A stretch of DNA of 57,729 nucleotides from a virus (Duplodnaviria; Caudoviricetes), in IMG/VR virus record IMGVR_UViG_3300033407_000016, positions 1 to 57,729 of that record; one strand, given 5' to 3'. Made by a program: the position numbers and the translations under genes. Below are positions 17,556 to 23,813 of the stretch, piece by piece (positions within the stretch are counted from its first letter, which is position 1; every line of letters begins with the position of its first letter). The notes under the pieces were generated by a model, which was not told where the DNA came from, ran no database searches, and worked only from the letters and a program-made list of their open reading frames with translations.

Positions 17556-18343
17556 GACCGAGCTTCGACGAATTGAACCATGGCGCGGCGCCAGTCGGAC
17601 GACTTGATGCGGCCCGCTAGGTTGAGCGCCTGCTTCTTCTCCTCGCAATTGAGCGCGGCCAACATGGGGATGGCGGTTTGCCGGACGAACGGGCTGGTGT
17701 AGCCCACGCCTTGGCCCCGTGTTTCGAGATACATCCGCACGTCGCTCCAGAACGCCTCGTCCACCACGATCGGCGTAGCCTCGCACGACCCAAGCGTGTA
17801 GCCATCATAGAAGCGGCGATCGCCCGGCGCGAAGCGTACCTTGGCGATCGTCGCTCGATCCCTGTTCGTGAGGAAGGCCCCGGTCTGGACCAGCGTGAGT
17901 GAGCCCATCTTCAGCCCTGATCGCTGGGCGATAAGCTCTTGCAGCATCGACAGTTGCAGGAACATTGGACCGAAACATGCAGCAAGGATATTGGTTTCTG
18001 AGGTGCATGCGGTCATCGTAAGTTCTTCCGCCGCAACGGTTTGTACGGACACGACGAGCGTCTCGGTCATCAACTGGAACCCAGAAGGCTCGTCCCACAG
18101 ATCATCGGCAATCGTGGCTATCGCGGCCTGTGCCTGATAGAGGCTCAGGAGGGCGTCCGTCAGCTCCTGTGCGGGGTTTCGCCAAATTCCAGGCCATGAC
18201 ACCACCCGCTCCTGCGGCCGTTCCACGACGAGCGTGAGGCCCCCTGGTAGGCGCACGGGGCCTTCATGCCCGAACTTGGGGATGGTTTCGTTGCGGAGCG
18301 CCATCAGCCCCACCTGAGGGTTCCTGGCGGTGATCACGTCCAT
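17552..18343 (-). CDS. divergent thymidylate-synthase-fold protein (dUMP hydroxymethylase-like, probably inactive)
   Basis: VITARN, P.ERV...NP, SMLQE and C-terminal DWRRA match YuA/M6-type hydroxymethylases as recalled; PCN and RSND catalytic motifs not found. Confidence 0.65.
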   Translation of the reverse strand: MDVITARNPQVGLMALRNETIPKFGHEGPVRLPGGLTLVVERPQERVVSWPGIWRNPAQELTDALLSLYQAQAAIATIADDLWDEPSGFQLMTETLVVSVQTVAAEELTMTACTSETNILAACFGPMFLQLSMLQELIAQRSGLKMGSLTLVQTGAFLTNRDRATIAKVRFAPGDRRFYDGYTLGSCEATPIVVDEAFWSDVRMYLETRGQGVGYTSPFVRQTAIPMLAALNCEEKKQALNLAGRIKSSDWRRAMVQFVEARS

Positions 18344-19095
18344 CGGTATCTCCTTGCCGGCACGGCATCGCGTGCATAGGTGTCGAACAGTTCCAGGGCC
18401 TTCTGGGCATCAGCATGCTGCCAGCCGAAGGCTCCCCCAGCCTCCTCCATCAGACGACCCACAACGCTGGTCGCGGCATCACGACCATACATCGAATCAG
18501 GGTTGAGTTCAAGGCTCAGCAGCAGGCTGGTCCCCCTCACGGTGGATCGGCCAGCGTAGATATAGGGCTCTGGCTCGCTCAGCAACAGAGCGATCTCGAA
18601 CGCGAGCTGTTTGCCAATGCCCCTCACGGTAGCCAGCATGTTCGTGTTGCCTTCCAGGGATAGGCCGAGCTGATACTCGATCGCGCGAGCTTCCGCGCTC
18701 TCCATCACGGCACACACCTCACCCAGGTTCATTGGCAGGATGCCCATCGTGACGTTACAGTTGATCAGGCAGGGCGTCGAGCCCAGGGCGTCGAGCACCA
18801 AGTGGCTGTCCCATCCGTGCGCCTGTAGGATCGGCTTGATGAGATCGAGCGTCTCCGTCTTCGCGAAGAGCCAGCACGCGATCGTCGCGTAGATGCGCAG
18901 CGGTTCGGGCAGGTCGGCGATGTTCTGTTTCCACCAGCGGTACAACTTGCCGTCGGTGCGGCGGATGTTGGGGAACCAGTAGTCACGCAGGCGCGCATTG
19001 TCTGTGTGCGGTGCCGGTAGCCCGGCCTCGACTCGTTGTCGAATCTTCTCTCGTTCAATCACGAAGTTCCAGAAGTTGGTCAGCGCGGCAAGGAT
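18334..19095 (-). CDS. aGPT-Pplase1 / amino acid:DNA transferase-like protein (divergent)
   Basis: FWNFVIEREKIR..EAG.P.P.T.N..L..Y.F.NIRR.D N-terminus, GIG..LAFE HhH-like motif; possible ATC start at 19095 (GTG at 19062). Confidence 0.7.
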   Translation of the reverse strand: MLAALTNFWNFVIEREKIRQRVEAGLPAPHTDNARLRDYWFPNIRRTDGKLYRWWKQNIADLPEPLRIYATIACWLFAKTETLDLIKPILQAHGWDSHLVLDALGSTPCLINCNVTMGILPMNLGEVCAVMESAEARAIEYQLGLSLEGNTNMLATVRGIGKQLAFEIALLLSEPEPYIYAGRSTVRGTSLLLSLELNPDSMYGRDAATSVVGRLMEEAGGAFGWQHADAQKALELFDTYARDAVPARRYRWT

Positions 19096-19280
19096 GAGTC
19101 CAGCTCCTCGTCAACTTGGATGACGGAACGCACGAGCCCGAAGACTGGCATGTGGTCCTTGCAGTCTCGTGGCTCGAACTTCGCGTAGCTCTGGCGCTCG
19201 GTGAGAGGTGCGAGGTAGCGATAGCAGTCGCCCCGAGAAGGGCACTGTCTGCTCATGCACATCGTGATGTCAGGCATCAC
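19080..19280 (-). CDS. small Cys-rich phage protein
   Basis: MPDITMC...CP....CYRY...QSY motif. Confidence 0.75.
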   Translation of the reverse strand: MMPDITMCMSRQCPSRGDCYRYLAPLTERQSYAKFEPRDCKDHMPVFGLVRSVIQVDEELDSSLPR

Positions 19281-19525
19281 AGCCCCACAAACTTCGCGCG
19301 CAGCTCGGGGCTCCGTGCGTACGCCCGCTTCAGTCGACGATGGATCGGCCGCCAGCTCAGGGGGCGGTACATGACTTGATGAGTGAGCTTCTCCTTCACC
19401 ACAGGCTTGCCGTGACGATCCACGCTGTTGTATCGGACCTTCCGCTCGACGTAGCCGAGATCCAGGGGCTGTGCTGCTCTCGCCACTGCCAGCTTGCGCA
19501 GTACCTTCGACTTTCGACCGTTCAT
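19277..19525 (-). CDS. basic hypothetical protein
   Basis: MNGRKSKVLRK..., GAGGAG SD. Confidence 0.7.
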   Translation of the reverse strand: MNGRKSKVLRKLAVARAAQPLDLGYVERKVRYNSVDRHGKPVVKEKLTHQVMYRPLSWRPIHRRLKRAYARSPELRAKFVGL

Positions 19526-19539
19526 TACTCCTCCTCGAA

Positions 19540-19615
19540 TGGTGGCCCCGGTAGGGTTCGAACCTACGACCTTCTGGTTCAGAGCCAGACGCTCTTCCGG
19601 CTGAGCTACAGGGCT
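19540..19615 (-). tRNA. tRNA-Gln(CUG), Lys-like body
   Basis: Cloverleaf, anticodon loop CTCTGAA, encoded CCA, A1-C72 mismatch. Confidence 0.85.
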
Positions 19616-19617
19616 AT

Positions 19618-19695
19618 TGGATGCCTCGGTGGGACTCGAACCCACGACCTTGGGATTAGGAATCCCCTGCTCTCGTTCCACTGAGCTACGAGGCA
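19618..19695 (-). tRNA. tRNA-Arg(CCU)
   Basis: TGCCTCG/CGAGGCA acceptor, loop TTCCTAA, CCA. Confidence 0.9.
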
Positions 19696-19707
19696 GTATA
19701 ACACAAG

Positions 19708-19783
19708 TGGTAGAAGCGGAGGGACTCGAACCCTCGGTTGCCTTCTTGTAAGGAAGGTGCTGTTGCCGCTGAGCCACGCTTCT
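19708..19783 (-). tRNA. tRNA-Val(UAC)
   Basis: CCTTC-CTTACAA-GAAGG anticodon arm, CCA. Confidence 0.9.
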
Positions 19784-19788
19784 ATGAT

Positions 19789-19859
19789 TGGCAGGTGTGG
19801 AAGGAGTTGAACCCTCGCTTCTGGCTTTGGAGGCCGTCAGGCACCCTGTGCTCACACCT
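19789..19859 (-). tRNA. tRNA-Trp(CCA), reduced D-arm
   Basis: AGGTGTG/CACACCT acceptor, G73, loop CTCCAAA, 71 nt. Confidence 0.8.
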
Positions 19860-19864
19860 ACAAG

Positions 19865-19944
19865 TGGTGGCGGGGGTGGGAATCGAACCCACACTCGTGC
19901 TTGGGCATGAGCCAAGTGCAGCAGCCTGTACTGCGTGCCCCGCT
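19865..19944 (-). tRNA. tRNA-Met(CAU), initiator-like 1:72 mismatch
   Basis: CTTGG-CTCATGC-CCAAG arm; A1-C72. Confidence 0.75.
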
Positions 19945-19952
19945 ACGAATTC

Positions 19953-20027
19953 TGGAGCGCCCGCCGAGACTCGAACTCGGACCCGCTGGTTGGAAGCCAG
20001 ACATGCTGCCATTGACACCACGGGCGC
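19953..20027 (-). tRNA. tRNA-Gly(UCC)
   Basis: GCGCCCG acceptor, U73, loop CTTCCAA. Confidence 0.9.
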
Positions 20028-20034
20028 ATCCGAT

Positions 20035-20111
20035 TGGTTGGTCCGGCAGGTCTCGACCCTGCGACCTCCGGGGCTTCACTCCGGCGCTCTTACCAACTGA
20101 GCTACAGACCA
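20035..20111 (-). tRNA. tRNA-Phe(GAA)
   Basis: Cloverleaf, loop GTGAAGC, atypical T-loop GTCGAGA. Confidence 0.8.
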
Positions 20112-20118
20112 TCAAACT

Positions 20119-20194
20119 TGGTGGAGACGGTGGGAATCGAACCCACCGCAGTCTGTTTGCAAGACAAACTCGCCCCCTTGGTACATGCGTCCCC
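20119..20194 (-). tRNA. tRNA-Ala(UGC)
   Basis: G3-U70 pair, loop CTTGCAA. Confidence 0.9.
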
Positions 20195-20199
20195 ACGAT

Positions 20200-20274
20200 T
20201 GGCTGACTCGGTGGGACTCGAACCTACGCGCTGCGGCTTAACAGACCGCTGCTCTGCCACTGAGCTACGAGTCA
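20200..20274 (-). tRNA. tRNA-Asn(GUU)
   Basis: Loop CTGTTAA, G73. Confidence 0.9.
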
Positions 20275-20280
20275 TCGAAC

Positions 20281-20356
20281 TGGTTGCCCCGGTAGGCATC
20301 GAACCTACAACCTTCGGGTTAAGAGCCCGCTGCTCTGCCAATTGAGCTACGGAGCA
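20281..20356 (-). tRNA. tRNA-Lys(CUU)
   Basis: Loop CTCTTAA, A73. Confidence 0.9.
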
Positions 20357-20359
20357 ACG

Positions 20360-20392
20360 AAAAGCGGCGCGAGCCGTGAAGCCCGCGCCGCT
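20360..20392 (-). terminator. intrinsic terminator between micropeptide gene and tRNA operon
   Basis: AGCGGCGCGGGC-TTCACG-GCTCGCGCCGCT stem followed by TTT. Confidence 0.75.
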
Positions 20393-20416
20393 GTACATGT
20401 CAGCCGATTGGACTTC

Positions 20417-20521
20417 CTACTTGCGGATCCACCAGAAGATGTCCGCCTTGGCGACCGCTGGCATCACAGTCAGGGCCACGATAATGGCCGTGCACATGAA
20501 ATACCGGAAGTGTTGCCTCAT
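20417..20521 (-). CDS. 34-aa micropeptide MRQHFRYFMCTAIIVALTVMPAVAKADIFWWIRK
   Basis: Translated by hand; AAGGGAG SD, own promoter and terminator; signal-peptide architecture. Confidence 0.75.
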   Translation of the reverse strand: MRQHFRYFMCTAIIVALTVMPAVAKADIFWWIRK

Positions 20522-20563
20522 CTCGGTCTCCCTTGCTGCGAGAATACCCTAGATACAGCTTAT

Positions 20564-20592
20564 ACGATACCACAGGCATCAGGAGCTGTCAA
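20564..20592 (-). promoter_or_regulatory. sigma70-type promoter
   Basis: TTGACA-17 bp-TATCGT with TG extension. Confidence 0.8.
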
Positions 20593-20813
20593 GCTCCGTC
20601 CCTTCCCTGATCTCGGACCAGGCCGATCGCCGCCTCATTCAGAGCACGGCTCATGCCAAGCAGGTCGATCGCGTTGCAGTTCATGTAGGCTGTGATCAAT
20701 TGGCCGTCAGGGTTGATCGAGATCATCATCGCAGAGCTGGATTCACGCAGGATCGTCGCCATGCGAGCGCGCTGCTCCTCGATGTTCACGAGCCGGTCCA
20801 TACTGTCGGACAT
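20589..20813 (-). CDS. hypothetical protein
   Basis: 74-aa ORF, AGGAG SD. Confidence 0.6.
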   Translation of the reverse strand: MSDSMDRLVNIEEQRARMATILRESSSAMMISINPDGQLITAYMNCNAIDLLGMSRALNEAAIGLVRDQGRDGA

Positions 20814-20882
20814 CCGTGCTCCTAGTACATCAGGTCTGGCGCGTTGTCCTGAGCAGCACTGGGATAGAGATGATCGCGTCGA

Positions 20883-22601
20883 TCACTCGCATTGCATTCT
20901 CCCTGATTCGTGGTCGAGCGCGCACGAGGCATCGACCTCGACGAGCATCGCCATACGCTCACCGTCAGCATTGAAGACGGTGCAGCCCTTGGCGCCCCGT
21001 TCCCACGCCTCGAAGTAGATCTGCTTGAAGTCCTCCCAGGGCATGTCGCCCGTGACGTTGCAGGTCTTGGACACTGCACTATCCACCCATCTCTGGGCTG
21101 TGGTCAGCACAGCGACATGCTCCTGGGCTGTGACCTCACTGGACTTCTTGCCTAGCACACCCAGGAACTCGACCCCGTAGTCCTTCACACGCACCGTGCG
21201 CTCGACATTGTCGGGTCCGATGTATGTGCGGTCAGCTTCGTACGCGAACACCGGCTCGATGCCGCTGCTCACATTGTCCGCAGCCACACTGATCGTACCA
21301 GTCGGCGCGATCGAGAGCAAGTGGCTATTGCGGATTCCGTGTTGCTTGATGCCCTCGATGATGCCCTCGTCCTCGAACAGCTCCTGATGGCTCTGGATGA
21401 AGCCACTCTGTAGGTACTGCTTGGCGTCGAACGCAGGGAACGGCCCCTTCTCCTTGGCCAATTCGACCGACGCCCGATACGATTCAATCATCAGGGCCTC
21501 CAGGATCTCTGCCTCCATGTGGAGGAACTCTTCGCTACCGTACTCGTAGCCTAGTGCTTCGAGTGCGTTCGCGAGGCCCGTGATGCCAAGACCCATGCGC
21601 CTTTTGCTCTTCGCCTCTTTCTCTTGTTCGTAGAGCGGGTAAATGGCGCGGTCGACGACGTTGTCCATCGCACGGACAACGTGTGGAATGTCTGCCGTAA
21701 ACTGGTCCCAATCGAAGCTTCGACCAACAGATCCAACTAGGTACTTCACCAGATTGAGCGAGCCCAGCAGGCACGCCCCGTCGGGGGGCAGTGGCTGCTC
21801 CCCGCACGGATTGCATGCGGCGATCGTCTCGCAGTACCAGAGGTTGTTCATGGTGTTGATACGGTCGATGAACAGCACACCTGGCTCAGCCCAGTCCCAC
21901 GCGCTGCGCATGATCATCTCCCAGAGCGCCCGAGCGTCGATCGTCTTGTAGGTCTGCCCCTCGAACACAAGGTCGAACTGGCTGCCATGCTTGACCGCGT
22001 CCATGAACTTGTCCGTCACAGCGACCGAGATGTTGAAGCCTGTCAGTGAGCCCTTCTCACATACCTGGCACCAGTCCCGCTTCGTGTGGATGAACTCCTC
22101 GATGTCGGGATGATCCACACGCATCACGCCCATCTGGGCGCCGCGTCGATGGCCCGCGCTCGATGTCGCCTTGCCGACCGAATCGAATATCGGCATGAAG
22201 CTCACGGGTCCGCCGCTCGTGCTCTGGAGCTTGCGGATCAACGACCCCTTGGGCCTGAGTGTGCTGAAGTCGTTCCCGAGCCCGCCACCCATGCGCATTG
22301 TGATAGCGCCGCGCGCCGCGCATGCCATGATGCTGCGGTCACCGTCCGTGAACGTGTCCTCGATCTTGGCGCCCACAAAGCAGTTGTAGGGCGTGACGGC
22401 GCGCGTGCTGCCCATCGCAGCCTGAATCCGCCCGCCAGGCATGAAGCGCATGCTACCGAGAATATCTCGCAGGACGTGGTAGTGCCCGTCGTCATCCTTC
22501 AGCGCCGCAGCGACGCGGTTGATCGCTTCGCGGTAGCTCTCGTTGCTCGATCGGTACTTCGTCTCGTGGATATGCTGCGCGAACGGGGTCACTGGTCCCA
22601 T
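20883..22601 (-). CDS. nrdJ: ribonucleotide reductase class II (B12-dependent), compact
   Basis: PGGR, NCF, RRGAQM, HPDI, EPG, NPCGEQ, CLLGS, RRMGLG, APTGT; no beta-subunit gene seen. Confidence 0.92.
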   Translation of the reverse strand: MGPVTPFAQHIHETKYRSSNESYREAINRVAAALKDDDGHYHVLRDILGSMRFMPGGRIQAAMGSTRAVTPYNCFVGAKIEDTFTDGDRSIMACAARGAITMRMGGGLGNDFSTLRPKGSLIRKLQSTSGGPVSFMPIFDSVGKATSSAGHRRGAQMGVMRVDHPDIEEFIHTKRDWCQVCEKGSLTGFNISVAVTDKFMDAVKHGSQFDLVFEGQTYKTIDARALWEMIMRSAWDWAEPGVLFIDRINTMNNLWYCETIAACNPCGEQPLPPDGACLLGSLNLVKYLVGSVGRSFDWDQFTADIPHVVRAMDNVVDRAIYPLYEQEKEAKSKRRMGLGITGLANALEALGYEYGSEEFLHMEAEILEALMIESYRASVELAKEKGPFPAFDAKQYLQSGFIQSHQELFEDEGIIEGIKQHGIRNSHLLSIAPTGTISVAADNVSSGIEPVFAYEADRTYIGPDNVERTVRVKDYGVEFLGVLGKKSSEVTAQEHVAVLTTAQRWVDSAVSKTCNVTGDMPWEDFKQIYFEAWERGAKGCTVFNADGERMAMLVEVDASCALDHESGRMQCE

Positions 22602-22625
22602 GTGTGCTCCTTCGTGAGAGGATTC

Positions 22626-22654
22626 AGAATAGCACGATCAGATCGCAATGACAA
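22626..22654 (-). promoter_or_regulatory. sigma70-type promoter upstream of nrdJ
   Basis: TTGTCA-17 bp-TATTCT with TG extension. Confidence 0.65.
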
Positions 22655-23813
22655 CCCGCTTCGCGGCGCGCGTGATGGCGGTATACATCCAGCGTCGGGC
22701 GTTCGACTTGAACACGGCACTCTCGTCCATCACGAGCACACTATCCCACTGCGAGCCCTGACTCTTGTGGCAGGTCAGGGCGTAGCCGAACTCGAACTCG
22801 TTCGCGTCTCGGCGCTCGTACCACTCGGGCTCGGCGCCTTCGAACAGGGAGCGGTGGGCTTCCACGTCCATCATCTCACCACTGTCGGCCTTGACCGAGA
22901 AACAGAGTGGATCCTCAACCATGTTGTACAGTTGGTCGACTGTCCATAGTGAGCCATTCAGTAGGCCCGCCGCGTGGTTGTTGCGGATACACACCAGCCG
23001 GTCGCCCACGACAGGGAGGTGATCATTGTGACCGAGCAGCGTGCGGACGCGGGCGTTGATCTTGTGGCGCGTCCTGTTCATGCCCACGATGATCTGATCC
23101 ACACCCATTGCGATATCCTGTCTGTCCCGCAGATCCCCCTTCGGCATCACTAGGCTGTCGCCATGCTCGCCCAGCTTCACGCAGCCCCCGGTGCGGATCG
23201 TGGTAGCCAGATCGACGATCGGATCGCCCTCGGCCTGTCGGTGGATCTCTGTGAGCAGAATGTTCGGTCTGTGCTCCGTGAAGTAGCCTCCGCCACGAAC
23301 TGGCGGTAGCTGTGCGGGATCCCCCAGCACGAGCACCTTGCAGCCGTAGCTCAGCAGGTCGATGCCCATCCGCTCATCAACCATCGAGCACTCGTCGATG
23401 ATCACGAGATCAGCATCACGCAGCGGGCTCTCGGTATTGAGTGTGAAGATGGGCCGTCGTACCGCTGCGGTCTCTTCCGCGATCTTCCTCTTCAGTTCCT
23501 GCTTGGCCGGACCCTCTGACATCTCGGCGAACTCTTTCTGCATAGTCTTCAGTCGCTCAGCGGACTTGCTCGCGGGAGTGTAGATCAGGGAGTGGATCGT
23601 GGTGGCGCCAAGGCAGCCTTTCTGTCGCAACACGTACGCGGCCTTGCCCGTATACGCACCGAACCAGACGTTCTTCACGCCCGTTGAGAGGTGCCTCGCG
23701 AGCGTGGTCTTGCCCGTGCCCGCATAACCGAACAATCTGTAGATCTGCTCGTCCGACTTGAGCCAAGCAGCCACGCCGGCGAGCGCCTTCTCCTGTTGTA
23801 GTGACCATTTCAT
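22638..23813 (-). CDS. RecD/Dda-like SF1 helicase
   Basis: GYAGTGKTT, IIDECSM, GDPAQLPPV, HRQ, YALTCHKSQGS, YTAITRA. Confidence 0.93.
   Translation of the reverse strand: MKWSLQQEKALAGVAAWLKSDEQIYRLFGYAGTGKTTLARHLSTGVKNVWFGAYTGKAAYVLRQKGCLGATTIHSLIYTPASKSAERLKTMQKEFAEMSEGPAKQELKRKIAEETAAVRRPIFTLNTESPLRDADLVIIDECSMVDERMGIDLLSYGCKVLVLGDPAQLPPVRGGGYFTEHRPNILLTEIHRQAEGDPIVDLATTIRTGGCVKLGEHGDSLVMPKGDLRDRQDIAMGVDQIIVGMNRTRHKINARVRTLLGHNDHLPVVGDRLVCIRNNHAAGLLNGSLWTVDQLYNMVEDPLCFSVKADSGEMMDVEAHRSLFEGAEPEWYERRDANEFEFGYALTCHKSQGSQWDSVLVMDESAVFKSNARRWMYTAITRAAKRVVIAI

Follow-up and report, generated by a model that had tools for sequence, protein, structure and literature searches.

The 34-codon open reading frame (ORF) at 20417-20521 on the complementary strand of the phage genome studied here is a genuine micro-gene and, judging by its sequence, a phage copy of an undescribed micro-protein family whose members are mostly 13-41 amino acids (aa) long. 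The family layout is a variable hydrophobic segment followed by [hydrophobic]-D-[IL]-[FL]-W-W-[LIV]-[RK]-[RKH], located at or no more than four residues from the C-terminus. The micro-gene has its own expression signals, is conserved in a close relative, and belongs to a family that is under selection at the peptide level and is linked in bacteria to a membrane sensor gene. The explanation we favour for the phage copy, and to which we give about an even chance, is that it encodes a host-manipulating micro-protein whose working octapeptide would be delivered by a Sec-type signal peptide to a presumed host target.

The DNA analysed, referred to here as the window, is a whole virus record of 57,729 nt (57.7 kb) in which the long ORFs are all on one strand. 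The phage is a siphovirus, with PHROG matches to portal, head morphogenesis and tail proteins, DNA polymerase, primase and helicases, and its portal protein shares 52.7% identity with the portal of the Pseudomonas phage M6 group. When the portal protein was used to search for a host in three phylum samples of 201 genomes each, none gave a match. A 242-aa ORF (18334-19062, minus strand) matched the helical domain of 5-hmdU DNA kinase (PF18723, HMUDK_hel) below threshold, at E 8e-5 and 22.6 bits where the cut-off is 25, and also matched phrog_2396, hinting at thymidine hypermodification in the window phage. Such hypermodification is known in M6-type phages. The features of the micro-ORF and its surroundings are as follows:

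20417-20521, minus strand: 34-codon ORF with ATG at 20521-20519 and TAG at 20419-20417, encoding the 34-aa peptide quoted by the first-pass annotation
20528-20532, minus strand: Shine-Dalgarno (SD) sequence GGGAG, the ATG starting 6 nt further on
20564-20592, minus strand: sigma-70-type promoter, TTGACA-17-TATCGT with a TG extension, a 10/12 match
20444-20521, minus strand: codons 1-26, the signal-peptide-like part (n-region MRQHFR, h-region YFMCTAIIVALTVM, c-region PAVAKA)
20420-20443, minus strand: codons 27-34, the octapeptide DIFWWIRK that defines the family, as identified by pattern scans, alignment and a codon table
20417-20419, minus strand: TAG stop codon, immediately 3' of the octapeptide motif
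20363-20392, minus strand: terminator-like, G+C-rich 13-bp hairpin, then TTTCGTT; end of the micro-gene unit
19540-20356, minus strand: nine-tRNA array (context), tRNA-Lys first, 6 nt past the hairpin stem
20589-20813, minus strand: upstream 74-aa ORF (context), 94.6% identical in the close relative L003

The first-pass annotation had credited the ORF with a near-consensus promoter, an SD and a terminator, and these were found as the 10/12 site, GGGAG and the 13-bp hairpin. The upstream 74-aa ORF, which has no match in Pfam or PHROGs, ends in a TGA that the -35 hexamer overlaps, and a promoter scan of 19000-23000 gave three sites at the 10/12 level compared with 1.1 +/- 1.1 in shuffled sequence. 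The hairpin, read from 20392 to 20363, has 13 pairs (10 of them G-C) and a 4-nt loop and begins 24 nt past the micro-ORF stop; the fold of the 94-nt stretch 20357-20450 has an energy of -41.9 kcal/mol (z -3.81), and none of 200 shuffles was as stable. A second promoter-like site, CTGGCA-16-GATAAT (9/12), lies antisense within the micro-ORF at 20458-20485 on the plus strand and is within chance expectation. The size of the ORF alone is uninformative, since 66 ORFs of at least 20 aa overlap 18500-22500. Nevertheless, because it is conserved in a close relative, and because the octapeptide followed by a stop recurs in dozens of unrelated SD-led micro-ORFs, the micro-ORF stands above chance; the claim that an unannotated gene lies here was thus borne out by its signals, its conservation and its recurrent tail.

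One close relative of the window, L003, was found, with a ribonucleotide reductase (RNR) 95% identical to that of the window. Its micro-ORF orthologue is identical at 32 of 34 residues, the 105 nt differing by six base changes that give H4R, C10F, a silent Ala change, CGC to AGG and TAG to TAA; the change from CGC to AGG takes two base changes and retains Arg. The leader in L003 has insertions of 8 nt and 1 nt with the SD left intact, the -35 and -10 hexamers are identical to those of the window, and the hairpin is retained with one base fewer. The two genomes also differ nearby. L003 has extra DNA between the RNR gene and the 74-aa ORF (L003:7700-7940, plus strand) carrying a small Trp-rich ORF resembling a membrane protein, and this DNA is missing from the window at about 20830-20900. 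The tRNA arrays differ as well: the nine genes of the window (19540-20356) include tRNA-Phe, whereas the eleven of L003 (L003:8517-9639) include Tyr, Ile and Arg(ACG) without Phe, with two tRNA-Glu genes upstream in addition.

Beyond this pair the whole peptide is absent from the other 79 RNR-related loci (best E-value 2.3), TBLASTN against 50,697 phage records gave only chance matches at E=10, a search of the ESM Atlas gave no usable match, and MEGABLAST of 19400-21400 matched nothing but part of the PhiJL001 phage RNR gene. The exact 34-aa peptide has been called, without a name, on 10 contigs. Contigs from sequencing runs are near-identical to the window, and that of run X10 differs only at 20522 and 20547; as both positions fall outside the ORF, these contigs give no test of selection.

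The first sign of a wider family came from an eight-codon scan of viral contigs, which revealed in L085 four tandem SD-led ORFs of 19-23 aa. Three collections were then searched using degenerate DNA scans with the pattern D-I-[FWCL]-W-W-x-R-x and then either a stop or TGG, and matches were sorted by whether they lay in an SD-led ORF:

Viral contigs: 20 matches, 17 in SD-led ORFs, 0 followed by TGG, 3 without an SD
Species genomes: 55 matches, 35 in SD-led ORFs, 9 followed by TGG, 11 without an SD
Metagenome contigs: at least 123 matches, at least 60 in SD-led ORFs, at least 35 followed by TGG, at least 28 without an SD

These scans gave at least 81 distinct SD-led peptides ending in D-I-F-W-W-[LIV]-R-[KRH]. 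Their modal length is 19-22 aa and, among the matches listed, 62 of 81 have 13-23 aa, some peptides being over-extended by the rule used to pick start codons. A second pattern, D-L-[LF]-W-W-L-R-K, added 13 SD-led members on viral contigs, and 30 viral contigs, the window included, carry SD-led members of the family. The reversed control pattern had no match in 242 genomes, against 24 for the true pattern, and in each of two phylum samples 12 of the 121 genomes carried the exact motif. When a stop was not required in the scan, 17 of 25 viral matches still ended in an immediate stop; of the remainder, three, belonging to two lineages, run on for 3-4 further residues and five appear to be due to chance. 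The window ORF itself has DIFWWIRK at its C-terminus, an SD and 14-18 hydrophobic residues before the tail, the features by which the family is defined.

In 48 aligned family members D27, I28, W30, W31 and R33 are invariant, and the octapeptide, the very eight residues singled out by the first-pass annotation, is the only part conserved across the whole family. Among the matches listed (88 distinct ORF DNAs), all six Arg codons are used at the Arg position, indicating that selection acts on the peptide, and 11 codons are used at the L/I/V position. Among the same matches the stop is TAG in 58 of 88 distinct ORFs, TGA in 18 and TAA in 12. A preference for TAG after the basic pair is possible, and TAG is not rare in the backgrounds (19 of 71 long window ORFs, and 62 of 136 in Eisenbacteria-type loci).

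None of the Pfam, PHROGs or NCBIfam models matches any family member tested. A profile search of 1.84 billion representative proteins gave only 6 hits, with E up to 0.001; the five that were fetched all have the tail, and four are extended N-terminally beyond the SD-led start. Searches with the motif strings found no relevant paper among the texts covered, and members might be listed in the supplements of small-protein catalogues. Many phages carry one to four stand-alone copies of the tail micro-ORF, and its neighbours vary among phage contigs. At L085:1559-2000 (minus strand; the same DNA as L256) the four tandem paralogues each have their own SD and differing hydrophobic N-termini, all end in an exact tail or a near-copy of it, and a lipoprotein-like ORF comes next. 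At L088:4519-4719 (plus strand) an ORF 20 nt past the micro-ORF ends in Cys-x-Cys...Cys, which we take to resemble the C-terminal zinc motif of SecA. Eighteen further loci (L326-L357, for example L326:11338-11364) match a variant pattern within a recurrent frame, ...CCHVSDLLWWFRKW, then TGG; they lie on viral contigs of about 47-50% G+C, have neither an SD nor a stop, and probably belong to an unrelated conserved gene.

In the window peptide the n-region is basic (R2 and R6) and is followed by an h-region of at least 10 residues (Y7-M20) and by a c-region, P21-A-V-A24-K-A26, which by inspection places a helix breaker and small residues at -1 and -3 before D27. This n-h-c order, with Pro and AxA before the motif, was found in four phage lineages:

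Window and L003: c-region PAVAKA, then D
L090: c-region QPAAA, then D
L094 and L226: c-region APAFA, then R...
L164 and L268: c-region SPMTAHA, then FD

PHROG matches adjoining L090, L094 and L268 are to a tail protein, phrog_1499 (with a weak SbcC-like match) and large terminase. Since the layout recurs in four lineages, the signal-peptide-like anatomy is a recurrent phage design and not an accident. The n/h/c anatomy had been read well from the window sequence alone: the Pro at -6 and AxA recur in L090, L094/L226 and L164/L268, and the conserved signal-plus-short-tail arrangement that it was proposed to seek in related phages is present in L003 and the three other lineages. Cleavage of the window copy by signal peptidase is plausible from these residues.

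Most family members, however, do not have a signal peptide. In the 13-23-aa peptides among the matches listed, D or E precedes the motif in 33 of 62 and K or R in 10 of 62, and these short forms usually start acidic and end in the basic pair. According to the positive-inside rule, an acidic start and a basic end predict that the short forms have their N-terminus out and their C-terminus in. The residue before the Asp in 81 peptides among the matches listed is F in 25, A in 21, I in 11, V in 10, L in 7 and another residue in 7; as F, I, V or L stands there in 53 of these 81, cleavage by signal peptidase is not family-wide. A double-glycine leader was also considered and set aside, because the residues before the Asp are, by eye among the matches listed, rarely GG, GA or GS.

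In bacterial carriers, labelled Eisenbacteria, Krumholzibacteriota and Fibrobacteraceae, the micro-ORF lies 3' of a co-oriented gene of about 830 codons. This sensor gene is upstream on the same strand at 23 genome loci and at least 19 metagenome loci, and in another arrangement at no fewer than 7 more. Four of the encoded proteins were scanned: an N-terminal PDZ domain and a C-terminal SpoIIE-type PP2C phosphatase domain were found in all four and a GAF domain in three, and a crude hydropathy count gave about 7-9 hydrophobic segments. When the best 30 sensor orthologues from 61 genomes of one phylum were inspected, 19, among them every one of the best 15, had a tail-bearing SD-led micro-ORF 24-175 nt downstream, and these loci revealed the tail variants DLLWWLRK, DLFWWLRK and DLFWWLKK. 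The chromosomal copies carry strong SD sites within the sensor operon, and often no further gene separates the micro-ORF from a convergent one. At L122:2228-4738 and about 40 other loci the order within the sensor of about 830 aa is a transmembrane (TM) segment, PDZ, about 7-8 further TM segments, GAF and SpoIIE-type PP2C. Several sensor paralogues occur per genome (2-8 matches, E up to 1e-60), with the micro-ORF only beside the best-scoring orthologue set.

Given this tight gene pairing, a role as small partner or ligand of the membrane sensor is the best-supported one in bacteria, and the short forms in Fibrobacterota- and Eisenbacteria-type bacteria are most likely the sensor's small membrane partner or ligand. 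Because the family occurs in many phages and, in some bacteria, beside a sensor phosphatase, the octapeptide probably serves as a conserved ligand rather than as a signal peculiar to phages. Prediction of a complex between the L122 sensor (836 aa) and its own 22-aa micro-protein scored 0.22 and 0.00 against a mark of 0.32, a chain of fewer than 30 residues lying outside the calibration of that mark, so that these scores speak neither for binding nor against it. The idea that the tail is a C-terminal PDZ ligand was weakened by the two viral lineages that carry 3-4 residues after it; a basic last residue is also unusual for PDZ ligands. The sensor gene was not found near any of the 20 viral matches, nor near the window ORF.

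Other readings of the window ORF have to be weighed against an exported host-manipulating peptide. The one nearest to it, which we regard as possible but unlikely, is that the 34-aa helix stays uncleaved in the inner membrane as a tiny membrane protein, the tail working at the cytoplasmic leaflet by packing on a larger membrane protein. MgrB, SafA, AcrZ, KdpF and SidA are small inner-membrane regulators of larger membrane proteins, and the family resembles them in being under 50 aa with a single hydrophobic helix, often beside a partner gene and missed by gene callers; in contrast to them, it has a conserved C-terminal octapeptide on a varying anchor, is widely phage-borne and shares no sequence relation with them. 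AlphaFold2 gave a single continuous helix over residues 2-33 of the window peptide (mean pLDDT 84.7), which agrees with this reading, although one helix only does not separate the readings. The 62 of 81 peptides that have 13-23 aa are, among the matches listed, more often acidic than basic before the motif, and in L095 a long charged linker separates a TM segment from the tail, as would suit a cytoplasmic tail. Against it stand the basic N-terminus (R2, R6) with Pro and AxA before the motif in four lineages, and the 13-aa members, which are too short for a bilayer. The first-pass annotation had also raised a Trp/Arg membrane-active or receptor-blocking peptide, an option that comes closer to the evidence than a communication signal; its pore or toxin version, in which a pore former, type I-toxin-like peptide or lysis-timing factor depolarises or permeabilises the host membrane, fits the copies in sensor operons badly and is improbable. 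The size, the hydrophobic composition and the Trp and basic residues (WW and a basic pair) are those of type I toxins and Trp/Arg-rich antimicrobial peptides, promoter and terminator enclose this one gene, with the weak 9/12 antisense site at 20458-20485 (plus strand), itself within chance expectation, and the L092 micro-ORF comes after an ORF read by eye as endolysin-like. Chromosomal copies with strong SDs in a sensor operon would nevertheless be odd for a toxin, the motif is sequence-specific and not merely compositional, and an invariant octapeptide argues for a specific partner rather than bulk lipid. The least probable of all the readings is a membrane-tethered mimic of the FtsZ C-terminal peptide that competes for FtsZ-binding proteins and blocks division. 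Both are eight-residue C-terminal linear motifs found across phyla (D-I-x-x-aromatic-L-R-K), and the FtsZ tails from 14 carrier genomes follow D-[IVLK]-P-x-F-[LMI]-R-[RK], as in DIPTFIRK and DIPAFLRK, sharing D, I, an aromatic residue, L, R and K/R with the motif. However, positions 3-4 in the family are F-W and not P-x, and the tail does not covary with the FtsZ of the host: of 12 genomes that can be compared, 8 have the same kind of final basic residue in both tails and 4 do not, L119 and L120 differ in the motif (RR and RK) despite a common FtsZ tail, and three genomes with EPAYTRK tails have the motif unchanged. The signal-peptide forms would moreover place the tail outside the cytoplasm, and an FtsZ-tail mimic is thus poorly supported.

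The first-pass annotation had suggested an arbitrium AimP/Phr-type communication signal, a diffusible peptide released by its signal peptide and sensed by phage or host, and this we now consider highly improbable. Like Rap-Phr, NprX and AimP (RRNPP) systems, the family has a small ORF, a signal peptide and a short functional C-terminal peptide, and the bacterial micro-ORF directly 3' of a phosphatase gene recalls rap-phr cassettes, in which phr is located directly after rap. That phosphatase, unlike Rap, is a PP2C membrane sensor, and the family comes without a TPR receptor. As had already been remarked from the sequence, no receptor gene (AimR, Rap or NprR) adjoins the window ORF, whose neighbours are the 74-aa ORF without a family, the RNR gene, the tRNAs and the 242-aa ORF with its weak HMUDK_hel match. 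Most members have no export signal, and the octapeptide cannot encode specificity because it is the same in unrelated phages and across phyla. NCBIfam yielded nothing beyond an NprX match to residues 1-12 of the L090 peptide (E 0.12), which is meaningless. Attenuation, which had been entertained alongside the signal, has a very slight probability: here the product would be a cis-acting leader or arrest peptide, like the trpL, TnaC and SpeFL leader peptides of attenuators, and its translation would control read-through of the hairpin into the tRNA array. The order of promoter, SD, short ORF with tandem Trp codons, hairpin and tRNA genes is that of such a leader, conservation is concentrated beside the stop, and TAG ends 58 of the 88 family ORFs among the matches listed. 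Unlike these leaders, the micro-ORF has no alternative fold or matching regulated gene; whether 221 nt or 94 nt are folded, the 13-bp stem dominates the MFE and centroid structures with no competing antiterminator, none of the nine tRNAs is tRNA-Trp, and a tRNA follows the micro-ORF at none of 14 other viral loci. The four tandem copies in L085 and the bacterial copies that end an operon, facing a convergent gene, are equally at odds with a cis-acting leader. A further reading, which we hold to be distinctly unlikely, goes beyond the favoured one: the tail would be a cross-phylum ligand, D-[IL]-[FL]-W-W-L-[RK]-[RK], which Fibrobacterota- and Eisenbacteria-type bacteria would use with their PDZ/GAF/PP2C receptor phosphatase; phages of many lineages would have captured it, and at least four of these lineages, that of the window among them, would have fused it to a Sec signal peptide, so that an infected cell secretes a copy of its host's own signal.

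The explanation we prefer remains a host-manipulating micro-protein exported by the Sec route. Since the octapeptide alone is constant, it can be taken as the working part and the N-terminal segment as a delivery or anchoring device. In the window the tail would be fused to a Sec-type signal peptide inside its own promoter-to-hairpin unit; once translated, the pre-peptide may insert in the inner membrane with its N-terminus inside, and the octapeptide would then face the periplasm, freed by a signal peptidase I cut after AKA or still anchored. At this site it could bind a host membrane or envelope protein and alter host signalling. Several things count against this explanation. Most members have no signal peptide, the residue ahead of the Asp is not a small one in 53 of the 81 peptides among the matches listed, and the predicted side of the tail in the short forms is the opposite, cytoplasmic one. 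In addition, the nearest named phages infect Pseudomonas, and a sample of 151 genomes from the phylum of G247, the genome with locus L127, yielded no copy of the sensor; if the host is a proteobacterium, the target cannot be the PDZ/GAF/PP2C sensor.

The DIFWW-tail family, which gene callers mostly miss, is common in phages from soil, sediment and freshwater and in two little-studied bacterial phyla. Its invariant tail on a freely varying anchor provides a clean experimental handle, and the PDZ/GAF/PP2C sensor, through its conserved pairing with the family, offers an initial partner for testing. If the phages have captured a bacterial ligand, that ligand and its receptor phosphatase would be the diderm counterpart of phosphatase-peptide cassettes, and secretion of the ligand would mean that envelope or stress signalling is rewired in the infected cell or its neighbours. 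Should some copies be secreted, they would offer a rare example of an exported peptide encoded by a phage of diderm hosts, and should the tail serve phages for interfering with membrane signalling in the host, the family would represent a new class of host-takeover micro-protein.
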